Source of the DNA: Centroscyllium fabricii
Taxonomy: Eukaryota
Length of the DNA: 64,000 nt
Direction: 5' to 3'
Assembly: GCA_051313645.2 (NCBI GenBank)
Contig: JBNRSN020000295.1
Span: 124,001 to 188,000, forward strand
The first letter of the stretch is position 1. The number at the start of each line of letters is the position of its first letter. This document shows positions 1-51,359 of this stretch, in pieces. Below the pieces are notes generated by a model, which was given only the letters and a program-made list of their open reading frames with translations, was not told where the DNA came from and ran no database searches. The translations under genes were made by a program, and so were the position numbers.

Positions 1-432
1 ATATGTGGGGTTACGGGGATGGGGTGGGATTTGGGGGAGGGGGTGGGAGGGGGGTGCTGGGTTTGGATGATCAGCCATGATCTCATCAAAAATGGCGGAG
101 CAGGCTCGAAGGGCCGAATGGCCTACTCCTGCTCCTATCTTCTGTGTTCTGTGTTATAGTCCAACAGCTTGATTTGTAATGTGCAACATTTGACCTCTTG
201 TGACCCCACCTCATTGTTCTTTGATGGAATGTTTTCCGATTGGCCTATTCCTGCTCCTATTTCTTATGTTCTTATGTTTTGCTGACTGACCTGTTTGGAC
301 ACCATTCACACCTTTGATTGCTGTGATTGTCTCTCTGCCGAGGTGTGATGAAGGACAGCTGGAAAGGTTACCTGTAATCATCTAGCATTGTTTTCTGACT
401 ATATATGCTGTGCCTATGTGCATCTCTTCTCT

Positions 433-469
433 TTACCTGACGAAGGAGCAGCGCTCCGAAAGCTTGTGA
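433..469 (+). ncRNA. Minimal type I hammerhead ribozyme, copy 1
   Basis: TTAC-CTGACGA-A-GGAGC-AGC-GCTCC-GAA-A-GC-T-T-GTGA: stem I with one U.G pair, 5-bp stem II, palindromic AGCT stem III. Confidence 0.8.
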
Positions 470-791
470 TTTCAAATAAAACTGTTGGACTATAACCTGG
501 TGTTGTGTGACTTCTTACATTTGTCCACCCCAGTCCAACTGGTTTCTAGTTTGTTTTTTGTTTTTCATGCAGACCCCATCACTGCAACATTTGACCCCTT
601 GTCACCCCCCCCTGTCATTGTTCTTTGATGGAATGTTTTCCTAACTGACCTATTTGGACACCATTCACACTTTTGATTGCTGTGATTATCTCTCTGCCGA
701 GGTGTCATAAAGGGCAGTTAGAAGAATTACCTGTAATCATCTAGCATTGTTCTCTGACTATATATGCTGTGCCTATGTGCATCTCTTCACT

Positions 792-828
792 TCACCTGAG
801 GAAGGAGCAGCGCTCCGAAAGCTTGTGA
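792..828 (+). ncRNA. Minimal type I hammerhead ribozyme, copy 2
   Basis: TCAC-CTGAGGA-A-GGAGCAGCGCTCC-GAAAGCTT-GTGA; the variation falls on the free N7 position. Confidence 0.82.
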
Positions 829-1149
829 TTTCAAATAAAACTGTTGGACTATAACCTGGTGTTGTGTGACTTCTTACATTTGTCCACCCCAGTCCAACTG
901 GTTTCTAGTTTGTTTTTTGTTTTTCATGCAGACCCCATCACTGCAACATTTGACCCCTTGTCACCCCCCCTGTCATTGTTCTTTGATGGAATGTTTTCCT
1001 AACTGACCTATTTGGACACCATTCACACTTTTGATTGCTGTGATTATCTCTCTGCCGAGGTGTCATAAAGGGCAGTTAGAAGATTTACCTGTAATCATCT
1101 AGCATTGTTCTCTGACTATATATGCTGTGCCTATGTGCATCTCTTCACT

Positions 1150-1186
1150 TCACCTGACGAAGGAGCAGCGCTCCGAAAGCTTGTGA
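1150..1186 (+). ncRNA. Minimal type I hammerhead ribozyme, copy 3
   Basis: TCAC-CTGACGA-A-GGAGCAGCGCTCC-GAAAGCTT-GTGA. Confidence 0.82.
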
Positions 1187-1352
1187 TTTCAAATAAAACT
1201 GTTGGACTATAACCTGGTGTTGTGTGACTTCTTGCATTCATCCTATCACAGACCTTCCCTTTTGTTCTTTCAACCCCTCCCCCCTTTTCCCAGCCCCTAC
1301 ATTTGCTTAAAATCTTTTCCTGTTCCTGCTTTTTTCCAGTTCTGACGAAGGG

Positions 1353-1678
1353 ACAATTCAATTCAATTCAAGTTTTATTGTCATTGCAGAGTACTAATAC
1401 AATACAACGAGACGAAAACGCGATGCTCCCGAGAGTAGTGCAAATAAATTACATGCAAATTGCATACAGTAAAGTACATTTTCAGGTGTGCAGGTACCGG
1501 AGTTCATTTTTAAAGTTCAGGAGGCTGACAGCCCTGGGGAAGAAGCTGTTCTTAAATCTAGTTGTGCGGGTGCGAATTGATCTGTAGCATCTTCCGGAGG
1601 GCAGGGGGGCGAACAGACTGTGGCTGGGGTGTGTGGGGTCTTTAATAATGTTCAGAGACCTCCGTAGGCAGCGTTTGA
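1353..1678 (-). mobile_element. Rex1/Babar LINE 3' fragment inserted in a second Penelope-type hammerhead (duplicate at ~7844-8169)
   Basis: Peptide KDPTHPSHSLFAPLPSGRCYRSIRTRTTRFKNSFFPRAV and (TTGAA)n tail. Flanks rejoin as AGTTCTGACGAAGG...TCGTCGACCTGAAACGTTAACT. Confidence 0.8.
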
Positions 1679-1990
1679 GGTCGTCGACCTGAAACGTTAA
1701 CTCTGTTTCTCTCTCCACAGGCGCTGCCCGGCCCGCTGAGTTTCACCGGCATTTTCTGTTTTTATTTCAGATTTCCAGCATCTGCAGTATTTTCTTTTTG
1801 TGTTGTTGTAGTAATCCTGAGGCCTGGACTCCACAGTTCGTGATTTCAAATCCCACCCTCGATGGCTTGAGAACTTGAATTCATTAAAAAAAAAAATACC
1901 TTGGAACTAAAAAGCTGATCTCAATAAAAAGTGACTGGATTGTGGCATTTAGGGAATGTCCCTTCAGGGAAGGAAACCTGCCGTCCTTAC

Positions 1991-2017
1991 CTCGGCCTTT
2001 TGGCTAAGATCAAGTGT
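1991..2017 (+). pseudogene. U2 snRNA 5' fragment (nt ~8-34)
   Basis: Exact CTCGGCCTTTTGGCTAAGATCAAGTGT match to vertebrate U2; the rest of U2 does not follow. Confidence 0.85.
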
Positions 2018-2390
2018 GATTAATTATTCTTACGCTAATTGGCCTCGAGTTGCGAGAACTTGTTTTTCCGTTTTGGGTTGATCTTAGAGCTGGCTCCGGC
2101 CCAACGCCCCTTTGAAAAGCAAACTCTCTGACGTAAGAAAACTACTGGGCACTTGGTCTAAGCGTTAAACAAAGCTTTAATCAACTGTTTTACAACATGG
2201 AGGTCGAGTCGATTAGGTGAAAGCTTGGCCTGCAAGAAAAATGGCAGCGTGTGAGTGAGTGTGCAGCCGTGTGTTTGGCAGATGTGCCTGCCATAGTTGA
2301 ATAGCCGTTAATGTCTGCAAGGTGTGGGATGTGCGTGTGAGTTTTATGAGATGGCCATAGTTGTTGGATGAGTGTTGGGCATTTGGGTAT

Positions 2391-3010
2391 TTACACTGTC
2401 TGTGCACAGAGTGAGGTTGAGATGGTGGGATGTGGAGGTATTGAAAAGCAGGTACTCACCCTGGGCACCCGAGTGAGGTCGTTCAGCTTCTTATGACACT
2501 GAGTATGTGTCCTTGGCACCAGGCTCTGCGACGGCACGTGCTGGGCCAGCTCGCTCCACACTCTTCTAAACTCCCGGGGGCAATGGCCTCCCGCCAGTCT
2601 CTGCCAGGGCCCGTCGCTGTTCAACTGCGCCAACCAGAGCCACCAATGCCCGGTCGCTGAAGCGCCGAGCTCTCTCCCTGGGCCTCTGAGTATCCATCGC
2701 TAGTTTAAGCTCGATAATAGTTAGGTGTTTGCAGGCCGAGGTTCAAGGCTGCAATGAGCAGGGTGCGGCTGGGCAGCAAGATGGTCCCTCCCCTTTAAGA
2801 ACTGGGCGGGCGCCAGTCTGTCTGGCTTCCATGGTAACGGACATCGACTGAGCTTTGGTCGCGTTCTGAGGTAGCTCCTCGCTCCCCGACGTTAGCGCCT
2901 TGAGAGAGGTGTGTGGCGCCTGATGTCGCGCTCAAATCACCTCCAGGTGGCGAATTTTGTGCCCGGCCAATTTTAGCGCCCCAAAATGGGCAAAACCCCA
3001 TTTTTCCCCC
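2391..3010 (-). mobile_element. Degenerate PIF/Harbinger remnant with Myb/SANT-like ORF (duplicate ~8880-9500)
   Basis: Peptide WSELAQHVPSQSLVPRTHTQCHKKLNDL fits a Myb/SANT-like domain. The terminus (GGGGGAAAAATG on the minus strand) resembles the TIR of the MITE at 5448. Confidence 0.6.
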
Positions 3011-3225
3011 TTTGTATTTTAGCAACGCTGCCCTGGAGTTCAATCTTTCTTTCCGAGGACAATTTCCTCGTCTCCTTTCCTGAAACTGTTGACTCCTCGG
3101 CAGCGGAACACGGGAACAGGAGGAGGCCTTTCAGCCCCTCGAGCCTGTTCCGCCATTGAATTCATGGCTGATCTGAACCTTCATCCCATTTAACCGCCTT
3201 GGTTCCGTTACACTTATTACCCGTG

Positions 3226-3476
3226 TGTGGTAACCATATTACCACTTGTATATAGTTGTATATAGTTGCGAGTGCATTGTGTATGGAATACTGCATGTAA
3301 GGCCAGGTCAGCCACACCTCTAACTCCTCCCCTCAGGTGGGAGCTTATAGGTAAGGTCTGCCCTGCCCCCAGTCATTTTTGCCTTGTGTTCAACTGGAGA
3401 CTAGCTCCATCTTCAAGTTAATAAAAGCCTGTAGTTAAGGTAACTACTCGTCTTTCGTATTATTGACGATACGTCA
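3226..3476 (+). mobile_element. Solo LTR inside a CR1 3' fragment (duplicate 9715-9966)
   Basis: TG...CA ends, AATAAA, 5-bp TSD CCGTG (3221-3225 / 3477-3481). Confidence 0.85.
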
Positions 3477-3735
3477 CCGTGCCTGACAAAAATCTGCCGA
3501 TCTCAGTTTTGAAATTTTCAATTGACGCCCCTCCGCTCCCCCGGCCTCAACAGCATTTTCAGGGAGAGAGTTCCCGATTTCCACCACCCTTTGTGTGAAG
3601 AAGTGCTTCCTGACATCAGCCCTGAACGGCCTGGCTCTAATTTTAAGGTTACTCCCTGTTTTCTGGACTCACACACCAGAGGAAATAGTTTCTCGCTTTC
3701 TCCCTTATCAAATCCTTTAATCATCTTAAACACCT

Positions 3736-4020
3736 TGTGGTAAACCGTAATACCGTTTACCACCACCGTTACCCACTGTTGCACTGCACTGTACATAGTT
3801 ACCCGTAATACCGTTCGCCACCACTATTGTGTTGTATTGTATATAGTTACCTCTTGCCTCGGAGGACTCGGTCAGCTCCGGCTCCACCCACCTACTGAGG
3901 ATAAAGGCCTCATGCCATTTCCAGGACTCGACTGTGATATGACCGGTACTCCAGTTCTTTGCTAATAAAAGCCTCAGTTATATCTCAACTCAGTCTTTTG
4001 GTATAATTGATCGTGTATCA
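3736..4020 (+). mobile_element. Solo LTR, related family (duplicate 10226-10510)
   Basis: TGTGGTAA...TATCA, AATAAA, 5-bp TSD CACCT. Confidence 0.85.
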
Positions 4021-4531
4021 CACCTCAATTAGATCACCCCCCTCAATTTGCTATGCTCATTGGAACACAAGCCTACAGAGTATGGCCTCCAGAGTCTCCT
4101 GTTCCTCTCGGTTGGCCGTCCTTCTATGCGTGAGTGTTGACAGTGCTATTCTACTGCTGGAGGCACCTGAGCCCGGCCCTGCCCTCACCTGATGTCCAAA
4201 CACTGGCGGCGGGCGTCACTGGATACTCTTGGGGCGTTGAGGTCCAATAGTAGCAACCCAGCCTCTCCCTCAGCTGCGATCAGCAAGGGGTCATAAGAAC
4301 ATAAGAAATAGGGGCAGGAGTTAGGCCGTACGGCCCCTCGAGCCTGCTCCGCCATTAAATAAGATCATGGCTGATCTTCGACCTCATCTCCACTTTCCCG
4401 CCCGATCTCCATATCCCTTGATTCCCCTAGAGTCCAAAAATCTCTCGATCTCAGCCTTGAATATACTCAACGATTCAGCATCCACAGCCGTCTGGGGTAG
4501 AGAATTTCAAAGGTCGTCACAGAGGGCAGTG

Positions 4532-4804
4532 CAGGTCCGACACCGTTAATCCGGCACCGTCGGGACCAGGCCAGTGCCGGACGAGTGAAAAATCCGAACG
4601 ACTGAAGCTTCGGCGAGTGCATGCGCAGACCATTCAAAATCGCTGCCGCGCATGCGCAGACCATTCAAAATGGCCGCCGCGCATGTGCAGACCATTCAAA
4701 ATGGCTGCTGCGCATGCGCAGACCAGTCGGGGAGCGGCCCAGATTTGTGCCGGATGACTGAAGATTCCGGATTAACGGTGTACGGATTAAAAGTGCCGGA
4801 CCTG
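4532..4804. mobile_element. Tigger/pogo-like MITE with TGCGCATGCGCA and AAAATGGC internal repeats
   Basis: Ends CAGGTCCG...CGGACCTG followed by TA; interrupts a CR1 3' fragment. Confidence 0.7.
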
Positions 4805-5447
4805 TAGAGGCCAATTCATTAAATATATTCAAGAAGGAGTTGGATATATTTCTTAAGGCTAAAGAGATCAAGGGATATGGGGAGAAGGCAGGGACAGGGT
4901 ACTGAATTTGGATGATCAGCCATGATCTCATCGAATGGCGGAGCAGGCTCGAGGGGCCGAATGGCTGACTCCTGCTCCTATTTTCTATGTTTCTATGTAA
5001 GTAGCAAGGAGCCCTTAAAATGACATTAACGATGCCCAATTAAGGGCTCCTAATGAGCCTAACGAACAACCTCGCCGATGCCGGGCGGGACTGAGGCTGG
5101 TCGACCGGACACGCCGGGTGAAATTGACAAGCGGGCGGGAAGGCGGTGGGAGGGGTCGCGGACTCCCATTTCTGCTATTTTCGCTGCCGTCCCGCCCAGA
5201 AACCCACCTCATGGCCCGGGGAATATCCTGCCCTATGAGTTTCAAGCCTACCTCCTCAGTTGGGGAATTTTAAATCAATTAATTAAATACATTTGGAATC
5301 GAGAGCGAGTATCAACAACGGTGACCATGAAACTACCGGTCTGGTGTAAAAACCCATCTGGTTCACTGATGTCTGTTAGGGTAGGAAATCTGCTGCCTTT
5401 ACCCGGTCTGGCCGACGTGTGACTTCAGACCCTCAGCAAATGTGGTT

Positions 5448-6249
5448 GGGGGAAAAATTGAGTCGCGCCCCCTTTGGGGCACTAACTTCGCCGGGGCGCT
5501 ACTTTAGCAACTCCATGGCCGATTTTCCCAGGTAGCGCCCTGAGATGAAGGAGGGGCGTTACTGGAAGCGCCCCGTCTCCCTCTTGGGGCGCTACAAGGG
5601 AATAGCGAAAATGGCCGCCCGGCACCTCACCTTTAATTAGCACCGCCCCGGCTGTAGGTAGGCCCCCCTGACCCCATCGGACATAGTGCCCGGCGGTACG
5701 ACAGGGGCGCTACCCAAGATCGCGGCCGGGGCGTGGCCGGGACGCTGTGCACGGCGATGACATGGTGGCGCAGTGGTTAGCACTGCTGCTTCGCAATAAG
5801 GAGCTCCTGGGTTCGAATCCTGCTCGGCCCGGGACCTCTCTGCGTGGAGTTGGCATGTTCTCCCCGTGTTCGTGTGGGTTTCCTCCGGGTACTCCGGTTT
5901 CCTCCCACCACCCAAAGACATGCAGGTTAGTTGAATTGGAGATGCTAAAAAAAAATTGCCCATGAGCATGTGTGTGAGATATAGTTCTTAGAGTTGGGGG
6001 TGTCGGGGGATATGGGGAGAAGGTAGGAGGGGGGTACTGGGTTTGGATGATCAGCCATGATCTCATCAAAATGGCGGAGCAGGCTCGAAGGGCCGAATGG
6101 CCTACTCCTGCTCCTATCTTCTGTGTTTCTGTGTAGCACCGCGGGGCGCAAATGGTTACCGCCACCGCTAACCTCCCACTGAATTTCGCGGGAGGCGTTG
6201 CGGCGCCGTGCCCGGGCACTGGTTGCTTTGTGCCCCGAATATTTCCCCC
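5448..6249. mobile_element. Harbinger-type MITE with nested V-SINE
   Basis: TIR GGGGGAAA / TTTCCCCC, 3-bp TSD GTT; empty site reads ATGTGGTTGACTCC. Confidence 0.75.
5756..6135 (+). mobile_element. tRNA-derived V-SINE, subfamily 2 (also ~16260-16590 minus and ~56455-56822 plus)
   Basis: A box TGGCGCAGTGG, B box GGTTCGAATCC, V core GTGGGTTTCCTCCGGGTACTCCGGTTTCCTCCCAC, CR1-type 3' tail. Confidence 0.85.
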
Positions 6250-6656
6250 GTTGACTCCTAACTGTTGCTCAGTTGTCTCGCCACCTTATCGAGGGCAATT
6301 AGCGATGGGCAGGAAATGCTGGCCTTGCCGGTGATGCCCACATCCCAGGAACTAATAAAAAAACAAGGTGGGTGGTTGGTCATTACACACTGCAGATAGA
6401 TGCTGGAAGTCCCATGATTTCCCGGGAGGTTATCCGACAATAGCACAGGGTGAGGTTTCAGGAACTTCACAGAAAACTATTGGCAAGTATTTCTGTCTAT
6501 GCAAATCCAGCCACAGACAAGCCCAGGCCTGCTTGTTGCCAAGTGCTGCACAGATTATTCACCTTTTGCTGACTCTAGCGGTACCGTATATAATGGACTA
6601 ATAATCTCAACAGAGAGTTCAACAATTTCAGATCATAACCTCGGCCCCTTTATATA

Positions 6657-7005
6657 GCACTGTTGCCCCACAGCGCCAGGGGCCCGGCTTCAAATCCGGC
6701 CTCGGGTGACTATCTGTGTGGAGTTTGCACATTCTCCCCGTGTCTGCGTGGGTTTCCTCCGGGTGCTCCGGTTTCCTCCCACAGTCCAAAGATGTGCGGG
6801 TGAAGTTGATTGGCCAGGATAAATTGACCCTTAGTGTTAGGGCGATTGAATATGTGGGGTTACGGGGATAGGGTGGGATTTGGGGGAGGGGGTGGGAGGG
6901 GGGTGCTGGGTTTGGATGATCAGCCATGATCTCATCAAAAATGGCGGAGCAGGCTCGAAGGGCCGAATGGCCTACTCCTGCTCCTATCTTCTGTGTTCTG
7001 TGTTA
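6657..7005 (+). mobile_element. HE1-like V-SINE, 5'-clipped
   Basis: V core GGAGTTTGCACATTCTCCCCGTGTCTGCGTGGGTTTCC plus CR1 tail. Confidence 0.85.
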
Positions 7006-10000
7006 TAGTCCAACAGCTTGATTTGTAATGTGCAACATTTGACCTCTTGTGACCCCACCTCATTGTTCTTTGATGGAATGTTTTCCGATTGGCCTATTCC
7101 TGCTCCTATTTCTTATGTTCTTATGTTTTGCTGACTGACCTGTTTGGACACCATTCACACCTTTGATTGCTGTGATTGTCTCTCTGCCGAGGTGTGATGA
7201 AGGACAGCTGGAAAGGTTACCTGTAATCATCTAGCATTGTTTTCTGACTATATATGCTGTGCCTATGTGCATCTCTTCACTTCACCTGAGGAAGGAGCAG
7301 CGCTCCGAAAGCTTGTGATTTCAAATAAAACTGTTGGACTATAACCTGGTGTTGTGTGACTTCTTACATTTGTCCACCCCAGTCCAACTGGTTTCTAGTT
7401 TGTTTTTTGTTTTTCATGCAGACCCCATCACTGCAACATTTGACCCCTTGTCACCCCCCCCTGTCATTGTTCTTTGATGGAATGTTTTCCTAACTGACCT
7501 ATTTGGACACCATTCACACTTTTGATTGCTGTGATTATCTCTCTGCCGAGGTGTCATAAAGGGCAGTTAGAAGATTTACCTGTAATCATCTAGCATTGTT
7601 CTCTGACTATATATGCTGTGCCTATGTGCATCTCTTCACTTCACCTGACGAAGGAGCAGCGCTCCGAAAGCTTGTGATTTCAAATAAAACTGTTGGACTA
7701 TAACCTGGTGTTGTGTGACTTCTTGCATTCATCCTATCACAGACCTTCCCTTTTGTTCTTTCAACCCCTCCCCCCTTTTCCCAGCCCCTACATTTGCTTA
7801 AAATCTTTTCCTGTTCCTGCTTTTTTCCAGTTCTGACGAAGGGACAATTCAATTCAATTCAAGTTTTATTGTCATTGCAGAGTACTAATACAATACAACG
7901 AGACGAAAACGCGATGCTCCCGAGAGTAGTGCAAATAAATTACATGCAAATTGCATACAGTAAAGTACATTTTCAGGTGTGCAGGTACCGGAGTTCATTT
8001 TTAAAGTTCAGGAGGCTGACAGCCCTGGGGAAGAAGCTGTTCTTAAATCTAGTTGTGCGGGTGCGAATTGATCTGTAGCATCTTCCGGAGGGCAGGGGGG
8101 CGAACAGACTGTGGCTGGGGTGTGTGGGGTCTTTAATAATGTTCAGAGACCTCCGTAGGCAGCGTTTGAGGTCGTCGACCTGAAACGTTAACTCTGTTTC
8201 TCTCTCCACAGGCGCTGCCCGGCCCGCTGAGTTTCACCGGCATTTTCTGTTTTTATTTCAGATTTCCAGCATCTGCAGTATTTTCTTTTTGTGTTGTTGT
8301 AGTAATCCTGAGGCCTGGACTCCACAGTTCGTGATTTCAAATCCCACCCTCGATGGCTTGAGAACTTGAATTCATTAAAAAAAAAAATACCTTGGAACTA
8401 AAAAGCTGATCTCAATAAAAAGTGACTGGATTGTGGCATTTAGGGAATGTCCCTTCAGGGAAGGAAACCTGCCGTCCTTACCTCGGCCTTTTGGCTAAGA
8501 TCAAGTGTGATTAATTATTCTTACGCTAATTGGCCTCGAGTTGCGAGAACTTGTTTTTCCGTTTTGGGTTGATCTTAGAGCTGGCTCCGGCCCAACGCCC
8601 CTTTGAAAAGCAAACTCTCTGACGTAAGAAAACTACTGGGCACTTGGTCTAAGCGTTAAACAAAGCTTTAATCAACTGTTTTACAACATGGAGGTCGAGT
8701 CGATTAGGTGAAAGCTTGGCCTGCAAGAAAAATGGCAGCGTGTGAGTGAGTGTGCAGCCGTGTGTTTGGCAGATGTGCCTGCCATAGTTGAATAGCCGTT
8801 AATGTCTGCAAGGTGTGGGATGTGCGTGTGAGTTTTATGAGATGGCCATAGTTGTTGGATGAGTGTTGGGCATTTGGGTATTTACACCGTCTGTGCACAG
8901 TGAGGTTGAGATGGTGGGATGTGGAGGTATTGAAAAGCAGGTACTCACCCTGGGCACCCGAGTGAGGTCGTTCAGCTTCTTATGACACTGAGTATGTGTC
9001 CTTGGCACCAGGCTCTGCGACGGCACGTGCTGGGCCAGCTCGCTCCACACTCTTCTAAACTCCCGGGGGCAATGGCCTCCCGCCAGTCTCTGCCAGGGCC
9101 CGTCGCTGTTCAACTGCGCCAACCAGAGCCACCAATGCCCGGTCGCTGAAGCGCCGAGCTCTCTCCCTGGGCCTCTGAGTATCCATCGCTAGTTTAAGCT
9201 CGATAGTAGTTAGGTGTTTGCAGGCCGAGGTTCAAGGCTGCAATGAGCAGGGTGCGGCTGGGCAGCAAGATGGTCCCTCCCCTTTCAGAACTGGGTGGGC
9301 GCCAGTCTGTCTGGCTTCCATGGTAACGGACATCGACTGAGCTTCGGTCGCGTTCTGAGGTAGCTCCTCGCTCCCCAACGTTAGCGCCTTGAGAGAGGTG
9401 TGTGGCGCCTGATGTCGCGCTCAAATCACCTCCAGGTGGCGAATTTTGTGCCCGGCCAATTTTAGCGCCCCAAACTGGGCAAAACCCCATTTTTCCCTCT
9501 TTGTATTTTAGCAACGCTGCCCTGGAGTTCAATCTTTCTTTCCGAGGACAATTTCCTCGTCTCCTTTCCTGAAACCGTTGACTCCTCGGCAGCGGAACAC
9601 GGGAACAGGAGGAGGCCTTTCAGCCCCTCGAGCCTGTTCCGCCAATGAATTCATGGCTGATCTGAACCTTCATCCCATTTAACCGCCTTGGTACCGTTAC
9701 ACTTATTACCCGTGTGTGGTAACCATAGTACCACTTGTATATAGTTGTATATAGTTGCGAGTGCATTGTGTGTAGGATACTGCATGTAAGGCCAGGTCAG
9801 CCACACCTCTAACTCCTCCCCTCAGGTGGGAGCTTATAGGTAAGGTCTGCCCTGCCCCCAGTCATTCTTTGCCTTGTGTTCGACTGGAGACTAGCTCCAT
9901 CTTCAAGTTAATAAAAGCCTGTAGTTAAGGTAACTACTCGTCTTTCGTATTATTGACGATACGTCACCGCGCCTGACAAAAATCTGCCGATCTCAGTTTT

Positions 10001-10793
10001 GAAATTTTCAATTGACGCCCCTCCGCTCCCCCGGCCTCAACAGCATTTTCAGGGAGAGAGTTCCCGATTTCCACCACCCTTTGTGTGAAGAAGTGCTTCC
10101 TGACATCAGCCTTGAACGGCCTGGCTCTAATTTTAAGGTTACTCCCTGTTTTCTGGACTCACACACCAGAGGAAATAGTTTCTCGCTTTCTCCCTTATCA
10201 AATCCTTTAATCATCTTAAACACCTTGTGGTAAACCGTAATACCGTTTACCACCACCGTTACCCACTGTTGCACTGCACTGTACATAGTTACCCGTAATA
10301 CCGTTCGCCACCACTATTGTGTTGTATTGTATATAGTTACCTCTTACCTCGGAGGACTCGGTCAGCTCCGGCTCCACCCACCTACTGAGGATAAAGGCCT
10401 CATGCCATTTCCAGGACTCGACTGTGATATGACCGGTACTCCAGTTCTTTGCTAATAAAAGCCTCAGTTATATCTCAACTCAGTCTTTTGGTATAATTGA
10501 TCGTGTATCACACCTCAATTAGATCACCCCCCTCAATTTGCTATGCTCATTGGAACACAAGCCTACAGAGTATGGCCTCCAGAGTCTCCTGTTCCTCTCG
10601 GTTGGCCGTCCTTCTATGCGTGAGTGTTGACAGTGCTATTCTACTGCTGGAGGCACCTGAGCCCGGCCCTGCCCTCACCTGATGTCCAAACACTGGCGGC
10701 GGGCGTCACTGGATACTCTTGGGGCGTTGAGGTCCAATAGTAGCAACCCAGCCTCTCCCTCAGCTGCGATCAGCAAGGGGTCATAAGAACATA
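6850..10793. repeat. Copy 2 of the tandem duplication, truncated by the gap
   Basis: Colinear with 1-4303. Has two hammerhead monomers (cores at 7286 and 7645) and the U2 fragment at 8482-8508. Confidence 0.97.
7282..7677 (+). ncRNA. Two hammerhead ribozymes 359 bp apart (7282-7318 and 7641-7677)
   Basis: Same TCAC-CTGANGA-A-GGAGCAGCGCTCC-GAAAGCTT-GTGA motif. Confidence 0.8.
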
Positions 10794-10993: not shown

Positions 10994-12937
10994 TGTTCCT
11001 TCCCCCCCACTTGTTCCTTCCCCCCCCACTTGTTCCTCCCCCCCCCACTTGTTCCTTCCCCCCCCACATTGTTCCTTCCCCCCCCACACTTGTTCCTTCC
11101 CCCCCCCACTTGTTCCTTCCCCCCCCACCACTTGTTCCACTTGTTCCTTCCCCCCCCCCCCCACTTGTTCCTTCCCCCCCACTTGTTCCCCCCCTTGTTC
11201 CTTCCCCCCCCCACTTGTTCCTTCCCCCCCCACTTGTTCCTTCCCCCCCCTTGTTCCCCCCCACTTGTTCCCCCACTTGTTCCTCCCCCCCACTTGTTCC
11301 CCCCCCACTTGTTCCTTCCCCCCCACTTGTTCCTTCCCCCCCCACTTGTTCCTTCCCCCCCCTTGTTCCTTCCCCCCTTGTTCCTTCCCCCCCTTGTTCC
11401 TTCCCCCCCCTTGTTCCCCCCCCACTTGTTCCTTCCCCCCCCCTTGTTCCACCCCCCACTTGTTCCTTCCACCCCCCACTTGTTCCTTCCCCCCCCACTT
11501 GTTCCTTCCCCCCCCACTTGTTCCCCCCCCACTTGTTCCTTCCCCCCCCCACTTGTTCCTTCCCCCCCCACTTGTTCCTTCCCCCCCCACTTGTTCCTTC
11601 CCCCCCCACTTGTTCCTTCCCCCCCACTTGCTCCTTCCCCCCCCCACTTGTTCCTTCCCCCCCCACCTTGTTCCTTCCCCCCCCACTTGCTCCTTCCCCC
11701 CCCACTTGTTCCTTCCCCCCCCACTTGTTCCTTCCCCCCCCACTTGTTCTTTCCCCCCCCCCACTTGTTCCTTCCCCCCCCCACTTGTTCCTTCCCCCCC
11801 CCCACTTGTTCCTCCCCCCCCACTTGTTCCTTCCCCCCCCACTTGTTCCTTCCCCCACCCACTTGTTCCTTCCCCCCTTGTTCCTTCCCCCCCACTTGTT
11901 CCTTCCCCCCCCACTTGTTCCTTCCCCCCCACTTGTTCCTTCCCCCCCACTTGTTCCTTCCCCCCCCCACTTGTTCCTTCCCCCCCCCCACTTGTTCCTT
12001 CCCCCCACCCACTTGTTCCTTCCCCCCCCCACTTGTTCCTTCCCCCCCCAACTTGTTCCTTCCCCCCCCCCACTTGTTCCTTCCCCCCCCCACTTGTTCC
12101 TTCCCCCCCCACTTGTTCCTTCCCCCCCCACTTGTTCCTTCCCCCCCCACTTGTTCCTTCCCCCCCCACTTGTTCCTTCCCCCCCCACTTGTTCCTTCCC
12201 CCCCCCACTTGTTCCTTCCCCCCCCACTTGTTCCTTCCCCCCCCCACTTGTTCCTTCCCCCCCCACTTGTTCCTTCCCCCCCCACTTGTTCCTTCCCCCC
12301 CCACTTGTTCCTTCCCCCCCCACTTGTTCCTTCCCCCCCCCACTTGTTCCTTCCCCCCCCCACTTGTTCCTTCCCCCCCCACTTGTTCCTTCCCCCCCAC
12401 TTGTTCCTTCCCCCCCCACTTGTTCCTTCCCCCCCCCACTTGTCCTTCCACCCCCCCACTTGTTCCTTTCCACCCCCCCACTTGTTCCTTTCCACCCCCC
12501 CACTTGTTCCTTTCCACCCCCCCACTTGTTCCTTTCCACCCCCCCACTTGTTCCTTTCCACCCCCCCACTTGTTCCTTTCCACCCCCCCACTTGTTCCTT
12601 TCCACCCCCCCACTTGTTCCTTTCCACCCCCCCACTTGTTCCTTTCCACCCCCCCCACTTGTTCCTTTCCACCCCCCCACTTGTTCCTTTCCACCCCCCC
12701 ACTTGTTCCTTTCCCCACCCCCACTTGTTCCTTTCCACCCCCCACTTGTTCCTTTCCACCCCCCCACTTGTTCCTTTCCACCCCCCCACTTGTTCCTTTC
12801 CACCCCCCACTTGTTCCTTTCCACCCCCCACTTGTTCCTTTCCCCCCCCACTTGTTCCTTCCCCCCCCCCCACTTGTTCCTTCCCCCCCCAACTTGTTCC
12901 TTCCCCCCTCCCCACTTGTTCCTTCCCCCCCCCCCCC
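10994..12937. repeat. ~20-22 bp minisatellite (CACTTGTTCCTTCCCCCCC)n; variant CACTTGTTCCTTTCCACCCCCC from ~12440
   Basis: Directly visible; the long ORFs here are artefacts of a stop-free repeat. Confidence 0.98.
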
Positions 12938-19420: not shown

Positions 19421-20463
19421 TACAACTTGCTTTCATAAAGCACAATTAACATAGTAAAATGTCCCAAGGTGCATCATAGGTGTGTAAGCAGACACAAATT
19501 GACACCGAGCAAAAGGAGACATTAGTACAGATGACCAAACGCTTCAAAGAGGCAGGTTTCAAGTAGAGTCTTAAAGAAGGCGCGAGAGGTCCGGGGAGGG
19601 AATTCCAGAGCTTGGGGCCCAGACAGTTGAAGGCACGGCTGCCAAACGGGTGGAGCAAAGGAAGTGGGGGGGATGCACAAGAGGCCAGAACTGGAGGAAC
19701 GCATCGATCTTGGAGGCTTGCAGACAACGCTCCCTTTAAGCAGTGGCCACAGAGCTTTCGGGACCTCCCGCGCAGCCAACTCTTCAATGGGAGGAAAAAC
19801 CGCGCACGCACGGTGTTTTGAAGGACCGCGCATCCAAAAAAGTTAATGGGAACATTGGTTGTAGGGCTGGAGGAAGTTACAGTTCCTGTAGCACCTTCAA
19901 AAAAAACCAAGGACACACCAACATGAGAATCAAGTACAAACACATATCCCAACACGGCTGCACTTTTAAACGCTGTACCTCCTCAGACCAGAATCTAAAT
20001 AACCCACGCTAACCTTGCTGCTATGCTCACCAACTTCAACAAGGAGGCCAAGATATTTGAGCCGTGAAAATCTGCATGGTGGCCATCAATGGCACCCTAT
20101 AATCAGCTGACTGTTGCTAGGACTGAACAATCATTACGGCATAGCTGACAAGTTCCGCAACTCATTCAAGAGGGATGAATTCGGAAGTCAATTAAGGCTC
20201 CCTTCTTCTGGATAGTTTGTCTCTGGACTACGTGACAACTTGATCCATCAATATGATGTTTCAGGAGTCAGAACCAAAAGCTAATAATAATAATTCAACT
20301 TTATTGTCATTATACAATGTACAAGTACATGAACAACGAAATGTGATCTTGCAAGCTCCCAAGAGTCCAGCAAAGCCGCTGCGCCTGTGCGCGCCGCCAT
20401 TCCATCTTCCCATCATTCCGACAATCTTCAGCCAACCGCCCCTCCCCGGGGCTCCTTTCGTGA

Positions 20464-20537
20464 CCTTCTGCACCTGGTATTCCCTGGTGGTTACCCATCC
20501 AAGTACTAACCAGGCCTGGCTCTGCTTAGCTTCCAAG
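20464..20537 (-). pseudogene. 5S rRNA-derived fragment (3' two-thirds, internal control region)
   Basis: Minus strand GGAAGCTAAGCAGAGCCAGGCCTGGTTAGTACTTGGATGGGTAACCACCAGGGAATACCAGGTGC closely matches vertebrate 5S; the 5' part is missing. Confidence 0.85.
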
Positions 20538-22643: not shown

Positions 22644-22862
22644 CAGAAAAGGCTGGAAAAACTCAGCAGGCCAGGCAACATCCATGGAGAGAGAAAGAGT
22701 CAACGTTTCCGGTCGGGACCCTTTGTCAAGACGGAGTCTTGACAAAGGGTCCCGACCCGAAATGTTGACTCTCTTTCTCTCTCCATGGATGTTACCTGGC
22801 CTTTTTCCTGAGTTTTTCCAGCATTTTGTGCGGTTATTTCGGATTTCCAGCATCTGCAGTAT
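22644..22862. mobile_element. Inverted (palindromic) Penelope-type terminus with decayed hammerheads
   Basis: Arms fold about GAC-GGA-GTC (22730-22738). GTC-TTGACAA-A-GGGTCCCGACCC-GAAATGTT-GAC is a mutated hammerhead. Confidence 0.7.
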
Positions 22863-26157: not shown

Positions 26158-26409
26158 ATATAGTCTGTGCATGTTAGCATGCAGTCTGCTCCACCCCCAA
26201 AAAAATATGTAGCACTTAAACCTCCATTTTATTTCAACTCAGATTATTGGATAAACCCTCCAAGTGCATAAATCTTGCAGATAGGACAGGCTCCAGCTTC
26301 TACTGTTAAGTCTCTCACTGTTAGACATTTTAAGGAGGAGCGGGGAAAAAGAGTGAATTTGAGATGAAAGGCTAAATGCGAAGGGTCTTCCTCCAGCCTC
26401 CCCATTCAA

Positions 26410-26720
26410 GTGTAAAAAGTCACACAACACCAGGTTATAGTCCAACAGCTTTATTTGAAATCACAAGCTTTCGGAGCGCTGGTCCTTCGTCAGGTGAAGT
26501 GAAGAGATGCATATAGGCACAGCATATATAGTCAGAGAACAATGCTGGATGATTACAGGTAATTTTTCTAACTGCCCTTTATCACACCTCGGCAGAGAGA
26601 TAATCACCGCGATCAAAGGTGTGAATGGTGTCCAAACCGGTCAGGCAGGAAAACATTCCATCAAAGAACAATGAGGTGGGGTCACATGTTGCAGATGTTG
26701 GGGTCGGTATGAAAAACAAA
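26410..26720 (-). mobile_element. Single Penelope-type monomer with hammerhead, same family as 180-1233
   Basis: TCACAAGCTTTCGGAGCGCTGGTCCTTCGTCAGGTGA at 26461-26497, with one stem II mismatch. Further copies at ~27535-27730 (+), ~29550-29640 (-) and ~40580 (+, decayed). Confidence 0.8.
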
Positions 26721-26820
26721 AAACAAACAAAAAATATAAAATAAAATAAAAAAATTGCTGGAAATCACGGCAGGTCCGGCCGCATCTGTGTAGAGAACAA
26801 GCCAACGACGACTCGAGTCT

Positions 26821-27377
26821 CGAGTATTGTGTGCTGTTTTGGCCGCCTTATCTGAGGAAGGATGTTCTTACCACGGAGGGAGTGCAGCAAAGATTCACCA
26901 GGCTGATACCTGGGATGGCAGGAATAACGTATGAGGAGAGATTGGGTCAACTTGGCTTATATTCGCTGGAGTTTAGAAGAATGAGAGGGGATCTCATTGA
27001 AACCTATAAAATTTTAACAGGACTGGACAAACTAGATGCAGGAAGAATGTTCCCGATGGTGGAGGAGTCCAGAACCAGGGGTCACAGTCTAAGGATAAGG
27101 GGTAAGCCATTTAGGACAGAGATGAGGAGGAATTTCTTCACCCAGAGAGTGGTGAACCTGTGGAATTCTCTACCACAGAAGGCCGTAGAGGCCAATTCAT
27201 TAAATATATTCAAGAATCAGTTGGATATATTTCTTAAGGCTAAAGGGATCAAGGGATATGGGGAGAAGGCAGGGACAGGGTACTGAATTTGGATGATCAG
27301 CCATGATCTCATTAAATGGTGGAGCAGGCTCGAGGGGCCGAATAGTCTACTCCTGCTCCCATCTTCTATCTTTCTAT
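26821..27377 (+). mobile_element. CR1 3' fragment inserted into a Penelope-type terminus
   Basis: CR1 peptide 26831-27286; GAGTCT duplicated on both sides. Confidence 0.85.
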
Positions 27378-27399
27378 GAGTCTGGATGACTCTACATCA

Positions 27400-27530
27400 G
27401 GTGGGGTTACGTGTAGCGTGACATGAACCCAAGATCCCGGTCGAGGCCGTCCTCACGAGTGCGGAACTTGCCCGTCAGTTTCTGCTCGACAATTTTGCGT
27501 TGTGTGTCTCGAAGGCCGCCTGGGAGAACG
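27400..27530 (-). mobile_element. Penelope-like element C-terminal fragment
   Basis: Minus strand reads about GGLRDTQRKIVEQKLTGKFRTREDGLDRDLGFMSRY, like the end of PLE GIY-YIG ORFs. Confidence 0.6.
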
Positions 27531-27863
27531 GACAGTTGGAAAGATTACCTGTAATCAATCTGGCAGTGTTCTCTGACTATATATGCTGTGCCGAAACGCT
27601 GACTTCACCTGACGAAGGAGCAGCGCTCTGAAAGCTTGTGATTTCAAATAAAGCTGTTGGGACTACAACCTGGTGTTGTGAGACTTCTGACATTTGTCCA
27701 CCCCAGCCCAACACCGGCATCTCCACATCTTCAGAGGACCTGACATGGTCCCTTCACATAGACACCTTGGTGAAGGCGGCACGGCAGCGTCTTTACCATC
27801 TCAGAAGCCTGAGGAAATTTAGAATGTCCCCCCAAATACTAAACAACTTTTACAAATGTACTA

Positions 27864-28842: not shown

Positions 28843-30935
28843 CATAGAAACATAGAAGATAGGAGCAGGAGTAGGCCTTTCGGCCTTCGAGCCTGCTCCG
28901 CCATTCAATGAGATCATGGCTGATCACCCAAACCCAGGACCCTGTCCCTGCCTTGTCCCTATATCCCTCGATCCCTATCGAGCCTGCACCGACACATATC
29001 CCACCCTGTCCCCGTAACCCCACATATTCAATCCCCCTAACACGAAGGGTCAATTTATCATGGCCAATCAACCTAACCCGCACATCTTTGGACTGTGAGA
29101 AGAAACCAGAGCACCCGGAGGAAGCCCACGCAGACACGGGGAGAATGTGCAAACTCCACACACAGATAGTACCCGAGGCTGGATTTGAACCCAGTCTCTA
29201 GTGCTGTAAGGCAACAGTGCTAACCACTATGCCACCGTTCCGCATCAAGTTTGTCCAGACCAGACGGTCTGTCAGAAAAACGCTACCGCAGCATTAAGAC
29301 CAACATAGAGAGGCTCAGGAGGAGCTTTTATTCCCCAAGCCATCCGGATCCTAAATGAAGATGCTGCCAAGGGTCGGTATACTGCTCCCTGACGATTGCA
29401 TGTCCTTTTTCCTTCCTGTAATTATTATTTGTATTTATTGTTATCCGGAGAAGCACAGACATGGAGCTTGCGATTAAGCATCTGACTACACTTTGTACAT
29501 GTATAATGATGTGTGTGGCAAATAAAGTAAACTTGAAACTTGGTCGCCATTCAAAGTGCAAGAAGTCACACAACACCAGGTTATAGTCCAACAGTTTTAT
29601 TTGAAATCACAAGCTTTCGGAGCGCTGCTCCTTCCTCAGGCGAAAGAGAAATTCATCCAAAGAGAGCATATACATGTGCTGTCTTTGGATGAAACATAGA
29701 AACATAGAAGATAGGAGCAGGAGTAGGCCATTCGGCCCTTCGAGCCTGCTCCGCCATTCAATTAGATCATGGCTGATCATCCAAACCCAGTACCCTGTCC
29801 CTGCCTTGTCCCCATATCCCTCGATCCCTATCGAGCCTACACCGACACATATCCCACCCTATCCCCGTAACCCCACATATTTAATCCCCCGAACACTAAG
29901 GGTCAATTTATCATGGCCAATCAACTTAACCCGCACATCTTTGGACTGTGGGAGGAAACCATCGCACCCGGAGGAAACATACGCGGACACGGGGAGAATG
30001 TGCAAACTCCACACACAGACAGTCACGCGAGGCCGGATTTTGGCAAGATGGCGGCGCGCATAGACGCAGCAGCTTTGCGTCTCCCAAGATGATGATGTCC
30101 GCTGGTCTCCGTACTGGTTCTGAACGTGGCCAGGCGGCGGTAACATCGAGGCCGTCGTGGCTGGAGCCTGCGTGGCCTGAGCATCGGGGCTGGAGCGTCG
30201 GGGCCGGGCGCTAGGAGCATCGGGGCCTGCGTGGCCTGAGCGTCGGGTCCGTCGTGGCCGGAGCATCAGGGCCAGCGTGGCCTGAGCGTCGCGGCCAGGA
30301 GCATCGGGGCCAGGAGCATCGGGGCCGTCGTGACCTGAGCATCGGGGCCAGAAGCATCGGGGCCTGCACGTCAGGGCCAGGAGCATCGGGGCCGTCGTGA
30401 CCTGAGCATTGGGGCCGTCGTGACCCGAGCATCGGGGCCGGGAGCTTCAGGGCCGTGAGCATCGGGGCCGTCGTGGCCGTGAGCTGCGTGGCCGGAGCAT
30501 CGGGGCCAGGAGCATAGGGCCGTCGTGACCGGAGCGTCGGGGCCTGAGCATCGGGACCGTCGTGGCCGGTGCATGGGGGCGTTATGGACCAGACTGGGAC
30601 TTACAGGAGAGGACATTTTAATATCTGTATTGTTTCTTTGGGAGATTGCATGTTTGCATTTCATTGTATTGTGTTGTTCACTTTACGATGACAATAAATT
30701 GAATTGAATTTGAACCCGGATCTCTAGTGCTGTAAGGCAACAGTGCTAACCACTATCCCACCGTTCCACATCAAGTTTGTCCAGACCAGACGGTCTGTCA
30801 GAAAAACGCTACCGCAACATTAAGACCAACACAGAAAGGCTTCGGAGCAGCTTTTATTCCCCAAGCCATCCGGATCCTAAATGAAGACACTGCCACGGGT
30901 CGGTATACTGCTCCCTGACGATTGCATGCCTTTTT
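28843..30935. repeat. Local duplication of a V-SINE plus Rex1 block; second copy interrupted by a GC-rich element with minisatellite (~30140-30570)
   Basis: 28843-29410 matches 29692-30040 plus 30710-30932. The insert has GAGCATCGGGGCCGTCGTG repeats and a TTGAA tail. Confidence 0.75.
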
Positions 30936-42561: not shown

Positions 42562-45498
42562 TCATTTTACTTCAAGCTCCTCTCTCATGTACTTGTCCAT
42601 AAATGATTGTTTATAACTGTATTTAAATTTCTTTATATTATTACTCATTTTCATTGTCACATCAAGGCCGTTCCAAAGGGATACCCCACAAACTGAGATG
42701 CACATGCTTTTTTGGGTCGTACAGACCATAGGATGTTTTAAATTAAAATGCCCTCTTAAATTATAACCCCCATCTCTGCTCGAGAACATTTTTTGAATGT
42801 TTCCTGGCACTGTGTTATTTATTACTTTAAACATAATTTGCCCAGTTTTAAATTTAACCAAGTCCATGAATTTCAAGGTTTGAGTCTTTAAAAACAAACA
42901 ATTAGTATGATCTCGATAACCAGCATGATGTACTATTCTTATAGCTCTTTTCTGCAATGTGCATATCTTTTGTAGATTGCTTTTATAAGAATTTCCCCAA
43001 ACTTCAACACAATATGACAGATAAGGTACAATAAGTGTGCAGTACAGAGTATATAGAGTTTTCTGGTTCAAAATGTGTCTTGTTTTACCCAATATTCCAG
43101 TGCTTCTGGCTATCTTTGAGCACAGGTATTTTATGTGAGGTTTCCAGCAGAGTTTGTGGTCTATTAAGACACCCAAGAACTTGATTTCATATACTCTTTC
43201 AATTTTTACATTTTCAATTTCCAAGTAAAATTCAGTGTTTATTTTACGATTTCCAAATAGCATCACTTTGGTTTTATTCAAATTTAATGATAGCTTATTT
43301 GTGTCGAACCAACATTTTAATTTGTACAGTTCTTTCTTGGCCACCTCTAAAAGCTGCTGCAGGTCATCCCCAGAACACAAAATATTTGTGTCGTCCGCAA
43401 AGACAACGAATTTTAATATGTCAGACACTTTACAGATATCATTGATGTATAATATGAACAGTTTGGGTCCCAAAACTGACCCTTGTGGGACACCACAGAT
43501 AATATTCGAGTACCTTGACTTGTGTTGTCCTATCTGGACAAATTGCTGTCGATTACTAATATAGCTTTTCAGCCAATCAAGAGCCACCCCTCTGACACCA
43601 TACCTGTCCATCTTTTTAAATAATATCTCATGATCTATTGTGTCAAAAGCTTTCTTTAAATCAATGAATATTCCCAGTGTGTGTTTCTTTCTCTCTGTAC
43701 ATTTAGTTATTTCTTCTACTAGCTCCATTAATGCCATGGAAGTAGATCTGGCTGATCTAAAACCATACTGACTATCCATTAGAAGTTTTTGTTTTTCAAT
43801 GAAATTTCCCAGTCTTTCATCATATAATTTTTCAAGTATCTTTGAGAACTGTGATAACAAGGATACAGGTCTGTAATTGGTGAAGAGATGTTTGTCACCA
43901 GTTTTAAACAGAGGAATAACTTTTGCAGTTTTCATTTTTTGTGGGAATGTACCCATTTTGAATGACAAATTGCATATGTGAGTTAGCGGATCCACAATTC
44001 CATCAATTATTTTCTTTACCAGATACATATCAATATCATCCCCATCATTGGAAGTTTTATTCATACATTTGTTTACCATATCAATAATTTCCTTTTTTTC
44101 TACAGTTCCCAAAGATATTGAGTCTGTGATTCTCTCTCCACAGTCCTCCTCAGTAGATCTCTTCCCAGTATCACAAATTTCTTTAGCTAGCTCTGGCCCC
44201 ACATCAACAAAAAATGTATTAAATCCATCCACAACCTCATTCATAAGTGTAATTTTCCTGTCCTTGTCTGTAAAATGTTCTGGGTAAGTTAGGTCAGCTT
44301 TTCCGGTTCTAATAATACTATTTAATACGTTCCATATTCCTTTAACATTATTTTTATTTTTATCTAATAATCTGGTATAATAATCCTTCTTACATATCCT
44401 CATAATACTAATTAGTTTATTTTTATATTTCTTATATTTAAGCTCTGCCTCTTTTGTTTTATATTTTATAAATAGCCTGTATAGAGTATTCTTTTTTTTG
44501 CAAGCATTTTGTATACCCTTGGACATCCACGGATTTTCTGAATACTTGTTCTTATTGCTACACTGATTTAGTGGGCAGTTTTTGTCATATAGAACTTTAA
44601 ATGTTTCTAGAAATAGCCCATAAGCTTTGTCAACATCTGATTCTTCACATACACTCTTCCAATTCCATTTTAATAACTCATTTCTAAAAGCAGATATAGT
44701 TTCCTCAGTTCTTATTCTCTTGTATTTTATTTCCTTTAACTCCCTCCTCTTCCTATAATTACCTTCATAAATTGAAAAAACTGAAAAAACAGGCAGGTGA
44801 TCGCTAATGTCATTCAATAATAATCCACATATCATGTTGCTTTCCATATTGTTTGTGAATATGTTATCGATTAGGGAGGCACAGTCAGATGTTATTCTGC
44901 TAGGTTTTGTAATTGCTGGAAAAAGGCTCATACTGTACATTGCTTCAATGAATTCATCCGTTTTTTTATGATTGTTTGGATTCAACAAGTCAATGTTAAA
45001 ATCCCCACAAACGTATTTAACCTTTTGCTCTGCTGTGGTGAACAATCTTTCCATATAGACCATGAATGTATTAATGTTGGATCCTGGCTTCCTATACACA
45101 CAGCTGACAATTACATTTTTCATTCTTTCCATACTTATCTCAATAGTAATACATTCCATCACTTCATCAATAACTAATGACATGTTATCAACAACCTTAT
45201 GTGAGAAACCTTCGTCCACAAACAGAGCCACACCACCACCCTTTCCACTCCGTCTACTGATACAATGATAATCATATCCCTGTAGAACAAAATCTGAACC
45301 CCTCTCTGCATCGATCCATGTCTCTGAAACAGCTATGATATTAAAGGTTTTTTTAAATTGTGCTAAATAATCTTTTATATTCTGGAAGTTTGCATACAAG
45401 CTTCTACTGTTAAAATGAATTATCGATATACCATGCTCATATTTAATAGTCGAATTAAACTGTTGCTCTGTGTAATAACAGCAGTTGGTGTTGATATT
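42562..45498 (-). CDS. LINE ORF2 (AP endonuclease plus RT), main part; the first 16 codons lie at 50358-50311
   Basis: [49 protein letters not shown]. The rejoined N-terminus reads MLDFEQDIDPDHNLLD-NINTNCCYY. Confidence 0.93.
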   Translation of the reverse strand, partial: NINTNCCYYTEQQFNSTIKYEHGISIIHFNSRSLYANFQNIKDYLAQFKKTFNIIAVSETWIDAERGSDFVLQGYDYHCISRRSGKGGGVALFVDEGFSHKVVDNMSLVIDEVMECITIEISMERMKNVIVSCVYRKPGSNINTFMVYMERLFTTAEQKVKYVCGDFNIDLLNPNNHKKTDEFIEAMYSMSLFPAITKPSRITSDCASLIDNIFTNNMESNMICGLLLNDISDHLPVFSVFSIYEGNYRKRRELKEIKYKRIRTEETISAFRNELLKWNWKSVCEESDVDKAYGLFLETFKVLYDKNCPLNQCSNKNKYSENPWMSKGIQNACKKKNTLYRLFIKYKTKEAELKYKKYKNKLISIMRICKKDYYTRLLDKNKNNVKGIWNVLNSIIRTGKADLTYPEHFTDKDRKITLMNEVVDGFNTFFVDVGPELAKEICDTGKRSTEEDCGERITDSISLGTVEKKEIIDMVNKCMNKTSNDGDDIDMYLVKKIIDGIVDPLTHICNLSFKMGTFPQKMKTAKVIPLFKTGDKHLFTNYRPVSLLSQFSKILEKLYDERLGNFIEKQKLLMDSQYGFRSARSTSMALMELVEEITKCTERKKHTLGIFIDLKKAFDTIDHEILFKKMDRYGVRGVALDWLKSYISNRQQFVQIGQHKSRYSNIICGVPQGSVLGPKLFILYINDICKVSDILKFVVFADDTNILCSGDDLQQLLEVAKKELYKLKCWFDTNKLSLNLNKTKVMLFGNRKINTEFYLEIENVKIERVYEIKFLGVLIDHKLCWKPHIKYLCSKIARSTGILGKTRHILNQKTLYTLYCTLIVPYLSYCVEVWGNSYKSNLQKICTLQKRAIRIVHHAGYRDHTNCLFLKTQTLKFMDLVKFKTGQIMFKVINNTVPGNIQKMFSSRDGGYNLRGHFNLKHPMVCTTQKSMCISVCGVSLWNGLDVTMKMSNNIKKFKYSYKQSFMDKYMREELEVK

Positions 45499-45502
45499 AT
45501 CT

Positions 45503-51131: not shown

Positions 51132-51359
51132 GTTGGTCTTTGATAGTCGGCCCGCAACAGCTCAGTTAAGCGCAGACAGATTTGCTGCTAAGGAATGTTC
51201 ACTATTAATATAGCTTAAGCTTATCCTGATGGTAGCAGTGCTGATTTGTGGGATCCCCTCTAATACTTTGAGTCTGAACCCTGTCCCCCTGTTAACAGAA
51301 GCTCTGACTTTGTCTCACTGCTGTTGTGTGATCAGGGTGCTAGTTATAAAACAATTAGT

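Follow-up and report, generated by a model that had tools for sequence, protein, structure and literature searches.

A short tandem array in which every unit carries a hammerhead ribozyme poses the question of whether the unit is itself a mobile element, that is a retrozyme, or whether the tandem arose in some other way. We addressed this question for an array in a 64,000-nt stretch of Centroscyllium fabricii DNA (the window), for which the initial annotation had proposed that 359-nt monomers are released as RNA, circularized and mobilized by the reverse transcriptase (RT) of a Penelope-like element (PLE). TRF reports the array at 274-1238, with a period of 359, 2.7 copies and 96% matches; the unit is 359 nt long and has 42.5% GC. 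Minimal type I hammerheads lie at 433, 792 and 1150 in the array and a further two at 7282 and 7641, and a motif descriptor places C3 of these five at 437, 796, 1154, 7286 and 7645. The descriptor found 7 motifs in the 64-kb window and none in any of 20 base-shuffled windows. Each copy presents, in order, the stem I 5′ strand TCAC, CTGANGA, an extra A, stem II, GAA, the palindromic AGCT, T17 and GTGA, and in each array copy stem II is GGAGC/GCTCC with an AGC loop. The core CUGANGA/GAAA/NUH, the extra base 9/10.1, the G10.1-C11.1 pair and the palindromic helix III are all present in the array hammerheads; helix I has 4 bp and the helix III stem is absent. Minimum free energies (MFE) of the motifs range from -8.6 to -10.8 kcal/mol. 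The structural reading made earlier, including the 5-bp stem II, is thus correct for all five tandem copies, which are hammerheads of the minimal PLE type as had been stated, and both kinds of variation listed for them, C or G at N7 and a single U.G wobble (copy 1, where the stem I strand is TTAC), can be read in the sequence. The array is also without an open reading frame (ORF), as had been said, the longest stop-free stretch in 150-1300 being 57 aa. The covariance-model search that had been suggested as a check gave a different outcome: no hammerhead model is among the nine Rfam matches at E≤1 in the whole window, and in 380-1300 Rfam gives two chance snoRNA matches at E≤10 and no match to a hammerhead model.

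The three head-to-tail monomers of the array, and the two in its duplicate, are confirmed as a tandem, but they are not equal units. Copy 1, which we call copy A (176-539, plus strand), is a 5′-truncated pseudo-LTR of source lineage 1 that stops within the 3′ tail, about 17 nt short of the point at which a PLE start codon would stand. Before it, in inverted orientation, lies a 28-nt stretch of this pseudo-LTR (153-180, minus strand; 89% reverse match to 469-496). Such 5′ inversions are typical of PLE insertions. After this piece, copy A is interrupted by a foreign insert of about 45 nt (229-280, plus strand) with a 7-nt direct repeat at 229-235 and 274-280. The insert matches the 3′ tails of a repeat that is abundant in the window, presumably a LINE tail, and the uninserted form (joint 228-274) is present in all four of the sequencing runs compared. 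Hammerhead 1 (433-469) has N7=C and the stem I wobble. The middle copy (540-898) is a hybrid, with a B-type 5′ part extending to at least 752 and an A-type 3′ part that includes N7=G at 800 and a piece of the tail; it holds hammerhead 2 (792-828, N7=G). Copy 3, or copy B (899-1238), is the 3′UTR/pseudo-LTR of source lineage 2; it begins in a T-rich tract, lacks the 3′ tail, and carries hammerhead 3 (1150-1186, N7=C). All of these are on the plus strand, and the predicted cuts, after 465, 824 and 1182, would release 359 and 358 nt. The same insertion is found as an A-B dimer at 7002-7729 (plus strand; hammerheads 7282-7318 and 7641-7677) in a neighbouring segmental duplicate of about 6.5 kb.

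Two further observations concern the surroundings of these copies. With its terminal CAG, the T-rich tract of the PLE 3′UTR (558-574 and 917-933) is similar to a splice acceptor, and it is in this tract, or shortly ahead of it, that the dimers of the window and of two loci elsewhere in the genome (L079 and L087) all restart. Directly 3′ of the array, at 1239-1352 and 1682-1800, lies a repeat of another minimal-hammerhead family, whose stem II is interrupted by a 328-bp insert (1353-1681); its stems are different and its palindrome is ACGT, with the same core as the array family. It has about 14,730 genome matches at ≤1 mismatch and a PLE-like ORF remnant at one of eight loci, and its unsplit form is present as joints in the sequencing runs compared.

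The nature of the unit is established by what adjoins it elsewhere in the genome: it is the 3′UTR/pseudo-LTR of a PLE that encodes RT and a GIY-YIG endonuclease. Dispersed relatives 94-96% identical to the unit continue upstream into a frame that ends a retroelement ORF, as at locus L005, where a dispersed copy is joined to the endonuclease C-terminus; the peptide at this ORF end had 56,565 first-look candidates in the genome, of which 150 were scored. At L029 the order is repeat-ORF-repeat in a partial tandem, with the start codon directly after the tail of the repeat. Among 150 scored N-terminal matches, three are in open frames of 918-920 aa, and two of these (L209 and L210, open for 889-890 aa) are each flanked by two repeat ends, the hammerheads of L210 being 3071 nt apart. 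At L029, L209 and L210 the unit therefore flanks a single RT plus GIY-YIG ORF as a direct repeat. The autonomous PLE partner that had been postulated does exist, in the form of full-length RT-endonuclease frames between repeat ends, although an intact YxDD is absent from the open frames of L209 and L210, so that neither can be taken as a currently active element. The RT of the PLE protein matches Pfam RVT_1 (E=2e-7); its endonuclease is unmatched in Pfam and was assigned to GIY-YIG from motifs, a linker CHSNLCKTC (CX4CxxC) preceding VVY..YIG. A CX2-5CxxC linker between RT and endonuclease is described for Neptune and Nematis (Craig et al., PMC8557442), and the available text of Li et al. 2026 (Li, Clavereau, Pollet; bioRxiv 10.64898/2026.07.22.740005) gives Neptune and Poseidon as the widespread vertebrate PLE clades. 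On these two grounds the element probably belongs to Neptune, a placement made by motif with a linker that Nematis shares. Its RT, linker, GIY-YIG-like motif, partial tandems, 5′ inversions and optional tail are like those of the endonuclease-bearing Neptune elements in PMC8557442, where partial tandems, 5′ inversions and tails of 30-40 bp are part of the described PLE anatomy. Searching the literature on sharks for Penelope or Neptune turned up nothing specific, and no description of this family was found in the literature searched, which excluded subscription journals and Repbase.

If the 359-nt monomer were mobile, its copies should be found beyond the array, and the initial annotation had taken three dispersed copies (26461, ~27605 and ~29610) as a sign of this. 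These copies exist, but the dispersed copies of the family are 5′-truncated PLE ends, some of which, including one in the window, are still joined to the endonuclease ORF. The first two belong to one inverted PLE insertion (26407-27712, no strand assigned), composed of a pseudo-LTR on the minus strand (26407-26734), an inverted pseudo-LTR on the plus strand (27527-27712) and a remnant of the endonuclease C-terminus (27413-27541, minus; tblastn 73%, E=7e-14). The third, found by sequence match and motif descriptor, is a short PLE 3′ end with its hammerhead (29554-29650, minus). C3 of the three hammerheads is at 26493 (minus), 27609 (plus) and 29639 (minus), and stem II of the one at 26493 contains a C.C mismatch. 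Genome-wide, a 33-nt hammerhead query has 39,352 exact matches and a 30-nt flank query 63,506, with none for either reversed control. We took a census of 85 loci from the first 100 flank matches listed, a non-random sample from the first ~24 Mb of contig C1 from which three overlapping loci were left out. Single ends account for 41 of the loci, and 43 have an inverted partner; ORF pieces are present at 26. A second same-strand end lies within 1.2 kb at 8 of the 85, and the only head-to-tail abutting pair (L127) has an 85-nt unit. A tandem of ~359 bp occurs at none of the 85 loci in these ~24 Mb; long arrays of the unit may exist elsewhere in the genome. The 3′ ends of family copies fall into two clusters separated by about 35-40 nt, in agreement with the PLE tail. 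Among 40 scored of the 2031 candidates from a hammerhead-to-hammerhead query there are two full-cover dimers outside the array locus (L079 and L087), neither with an ORF and each with a junction of its own; L079 has the same inversion-plus-tandem anatomy as the array locus.

The junction between units provides a more direct answer, since a mobilized circle would carry it to other sites. A junction 29-mer searched at ≤1 mismatch has five matches in 7.2 Gb, and all of them are in the ~6.5-kb segmental duplicates on contigs C817 and C856. The array has therefore not spread, and recurrence of the junction at unrelated sites, a feature of classical retrozymes, is not seen; the claim that the 359-nt monomer is the mobile unit is not supported. 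The corresponding model, in which monomers are spread by the PLE RT and the dispersed copies are their progeny, can appeal to hammerheads dispersed in tens of thousands, to full-length PLE ORFs and to the other dimers without an ORF (2 of 40 scored). These dispersed copies, however, end at the two 3′ positions of the PLE, lack the junction and vary at their 5′ ends, many retain ORF pieces (the 26 of 85 above), and their hammerheads are minimal where classical retrozymes carry canonical ones (PMC7229834). The junction count largely refutes a mobile family, and we regard it as the remotest of the readings considered here.

How, then, did the tandem arise? A and B are 92.9-93.8% identical and thus as distant as random pairs, the median for pairs among 66 dispersed copies being 94.1% (copies under 225 nt were left out of the identity and lineage-site comparisons), and each has closer relatives elsewhere, at 96-97%. 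At two linked lineage markers (27 CC, 19 GT and 16 mixed; p=2e-4) their states are opposite, and 4-6 of 10 lineage-level sites, some of them CpG, distinguish them, whereas nine of ten within-locus pairs differ at 0-3. The five tandem copies trace to two source lineages, and because the lineage markers of A and B differ, rolling-circle copying of a single monomer did not produce the dimer. All five copies counted in the initial annotation were found, but they are not independent, being linked by the segmental duplication. This duplication is in tandem and comprises at least three paralogous segments (1-4303 and 5804-10793 in the window; L039-L041). The segment at 5804-10793 is 99.96% identical to C856 and is followed by an N gap at 10794; from these sequences, C817 may be a duplicate haplotype.

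As a whole, these results make it probable, and we hold with good though not full confidence, that the array consists of PLE ends joined in a single partial-tandem insertion from two sources, multiplied in the ~6.5-kb segmental duplication and extended to three units by unequal crossover. In such a scheme, reverse transcription of RNA B by the PLE enzyme would have begun at the tail-less end and proceeded back as far as the T-rich tract; the RT would then have switched templates to another RNA, A, at its tail, and the insertion would have finished with the 28-nt inversion. The segmental duplication would then have multiplied the A-B dimer, and the third unit would have arisen at the DNA level. 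The different lineages of A and B would also be expected if one PLE copy had inserted into another, or if a deletion had brought two separate copies together, and a pseudo-LTR is open to nicking by the endonuclease of its own PLE (PMC11167929). We consider this unlikely: there is no remnant of A's tail after B or of B before A, the pair is bounded as a single insertion would be, by the 5′ inversion and the tail-less 3′ end, and L079 repeats the same anatomy.

The third unit requires separate consideration. The middle copy changes from B-type (until 752) to A-type (800 onwards), as unequal crossover predicts. N7 reads C-G-C in the trimer and G-C in three dimers, so that copy 1 has C where its paralogs have G and where a plain crossover predicts G. 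Beside this base, copy 1 has two further private changes that occur nowhere else in the genome, and no donor lineage for its private changes was found (1 exact among 108 matches at ≤1 mismatch). Gene conversion or mutation can explain N7=C in copy 1, and re-entry of a circle can explain it equally. The latter belongs to a reading in which the locus is a nascent retrozyme: the transcribed dimer would cut as a double hammerhead to give a 359-nt circle, and the third unit would be a re-integrated copy of that circle. A double-hammerhead fold is formally possible, the C-G-C order fits a circle inserted with its junction 3′ of N7, in a window of about 70 nt that includes the cut site, the unit size and 42.5% GC match those of retrozymes, and PLE ends have been proposed to seed retrozymes (Li et al. 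2026). This reading turns on one base, which conversion or mutation explains as well, and the junction never left the locus; the record of related dimers, the circle folding and the run data described below speak against it too. We judge it improbable. Its most specific form, a retrozyme at birth in which PLE ends joined by a template jump release a 359-nt circle, one copy of which re-entered its own locus as the third unit, is in our estimate more improbable still, N7 of copy 1 being the sole support for circle re-entry.

It might also be asked whether the third unit is real, or whether the assembly has made a trimer where only dimers exist. At 721 kb, C817 is short for a contig, and a gap interrupts it at 10794; both C856 segments are dimers and one of the window's segments is nearly identical to C856, and a hybrid middle copy is what a mis-join could produce. 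A simple mis-join would not, however, create the three private changes of copy 1 or the several differences between copies 2 and 3, and we think an artefact very unlikely.

Could the array RNA cleave itself and circularize? In ViennaRNA calculations, which are made without tertiary contacts, kinetics or proteins, the double hammerhead lies 9.9-13.1 kcal/mol above an inactive fold that pairs the two stem II regions, so that this model predicts an inactive cross-paired dimer. Folding of the circle is not notable (z of -1.4 to -1.6). In trans-acting ribozymes, CUU ranks as one of the weakest NUH triplets (PMC8879150). PLE-type motifs, including dimers of the Schistosoma minimal hammerhead, cleave weakly (PMC4209133); the available text of PMC11167929 describes them as needing the PLE protein, with no reads at the cut site; and one of nine Xenopus dimers was cleaved in Li et al. 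2026. We also consulted 24 public sequencing runs (all contigs, shares 0.07-0.52, RNA status mostly presumed), of which four were compared. In these contigs, two sets of which are presumed RNA and whose organisms may differ from the one studied, the bin containing the junction is covered at a depth of 16-73 in three runs, where the adjoining sequence reaches about 190,000-270,000. Such contigs cannot show starts, ends or circles, and poor coverage of the junction does not prove it absent. With the same proviso about organisms, family ends are abundant in the contigs of the four runs, and at loose ends the sequence runs on into the normal PLE tail. As for a source of read-through, we considered and rejected a host gene in the window, where the 21 ORFs of at least 200 aa have, on visual inspection, the character of retroelement or repeat frames; a gene outside the window may still provide it through a long intron. 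The hammerhead at the array locus is likely a neutrally decaying passenger, capable of at most weak cleavage if read through. In the master elements the hammerhead would be kept functional and would process the ~3-kb PLE transcript, possibly with the assistance of a protein, as in the Anolis PLE.

The distinction between master elements and the array locus can be made from substitution patterns. The initial annotation had held that core positions mutating as often as the flanks would speak for decayed PLE termini. From 95 flank-chosen copies, 18 that were truncated or had indels were left out, and in the remaining 77 the core has 39 mismatches in 847 positions and the downstream flank 15 in 825; in a stricter set of 53 copies (42 left out) the figures are 19 of 583 (3.3%) and 9 of 572 (1.6%), with p=0.08. 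Per copy, then, the core is not better kept than the flanks, which goes part of the way to the refutation that the initial annotation had set out. N7 and loop 2, on the other hand, vary at 100 of 308 positions with shared alleles, some of this variation being CpG decay, and the variation at the level of lineages spares the core, which implies that the master lineages kept it. The ribozyme thus matters to the PLE and not to the array locus: lineages spare the core and single copies decay neutrally. That all 11 core bases are kept in the five window copies was considered as a sign of selection and rejected. Only two of these copies are independent, an intact core is found in 49 of 77 copies, and two intact independent copies have a chance probability of about 0.4. 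In the paralogous tandem copy L040, U16.1 has changed to C.

Comparison with known systems places the array in a familiar group. In the available part of Cervera and De la Pena 2014 (PMC4209133), the hammerheads of metazoan PLE pseudo-LTRs share with these the short helix I, the extra base 9/10.1, G10.1-C11.1 and the palindromic 15.2-16.2, as well as their position in flanking repeats, mostly in single or inverted truncated copies, thousands per genome. They differ in helix II (5 bp here, 7-8 bp in the Schistosoma families) and in number (at least 39,352 exact copies here, 4,000-9,000 in coelacanth and Xenopus), and that part of the text does not name cartilaginous fish. With at least two consecutive complete type I units of MFE below -5 kcal/mol, the array is a retrozyme by the operational rule of Li et al. 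2026, whose families likewise consist of tandem units, each with a type I hammerhead and pLTR homology; in their one chondrichthyan the mean consensus is 363 bp; most families have ≤7 units, and unequal crossover is their stated scenario for local amplification. Unlike those families, as the available text presents them, the tandem here was traced to two lineages, probably brought together in one insertion, with a junction that has not spread. Classical retrozymes of coral, mussel and axolotl (PMC7229834) have a comparable unit of 150-450 bp with GC under 45%, no ORF, and a palindromic helix III that needs a dimer. They also have canonical hammerheads with a 6-bp helix I and loop 1-loop 2 contacts, arrays reaching 62-mers or more and abundant circRNA, whereas the window has minimal motifs in an array of two to three units known from DNA. 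The name retrozyme accordingly applies in the operational sense, and fails for the classical features of a canonical hammerhead and of mobility. The array family is a member of the known PLE minimal-hammerhead kind, and it may or may not be the chondrichthyan family of Li et al. 2026. The array offers a worked example of how tandem hammerheads from a retrozyme screen can be plain partial-tandem PLE insertions, and the junction count is a cheap test for separating these from mobile retrozymes. Should a circle indeed have returned to the locus, the array would capture directly the passage from PLE to retrozyme that Li et al. 2026 propose.

Several other features of the window were recorded. Rfam matches below the gathering score identify the 5′ ~35 nt of U2 snRNA at 1983-2020 and 8474-8511, likely a truncated retrocopy duplicated with the segment, and the 3′ half of 5S rRNA at 20462-20530 on the minus strand (32.9 bits), likely a pseudogene or SINE head. 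A 19-bp minisatellite of about 100 copies (10994-12932) adjoins the assembly gap. The long hairpin at 22670-22800, with weak sub-threshold matches to miRNA families, is partly related to 1685-1792 and is therefore likely an inverted pair of repeat ends. At 45844-49824 an open frame of 1326 aa is by eye a Gypsy-type gag-pol; a 278-bp repeat lies on both sides of it (45503-45780 and 50033-50310), and the two copies are 100% identical, which indicates a very recent insertion. A related copy at 59037-64000 is interrupted by a LINE. LINE-like ORFs of 1044 aa and 244 aa (42562-45696 and 50427-51161, minus strand), with a GC content of 33-39% unlike that of their surroundings, are apparently one element split by the Gypsy insertion.
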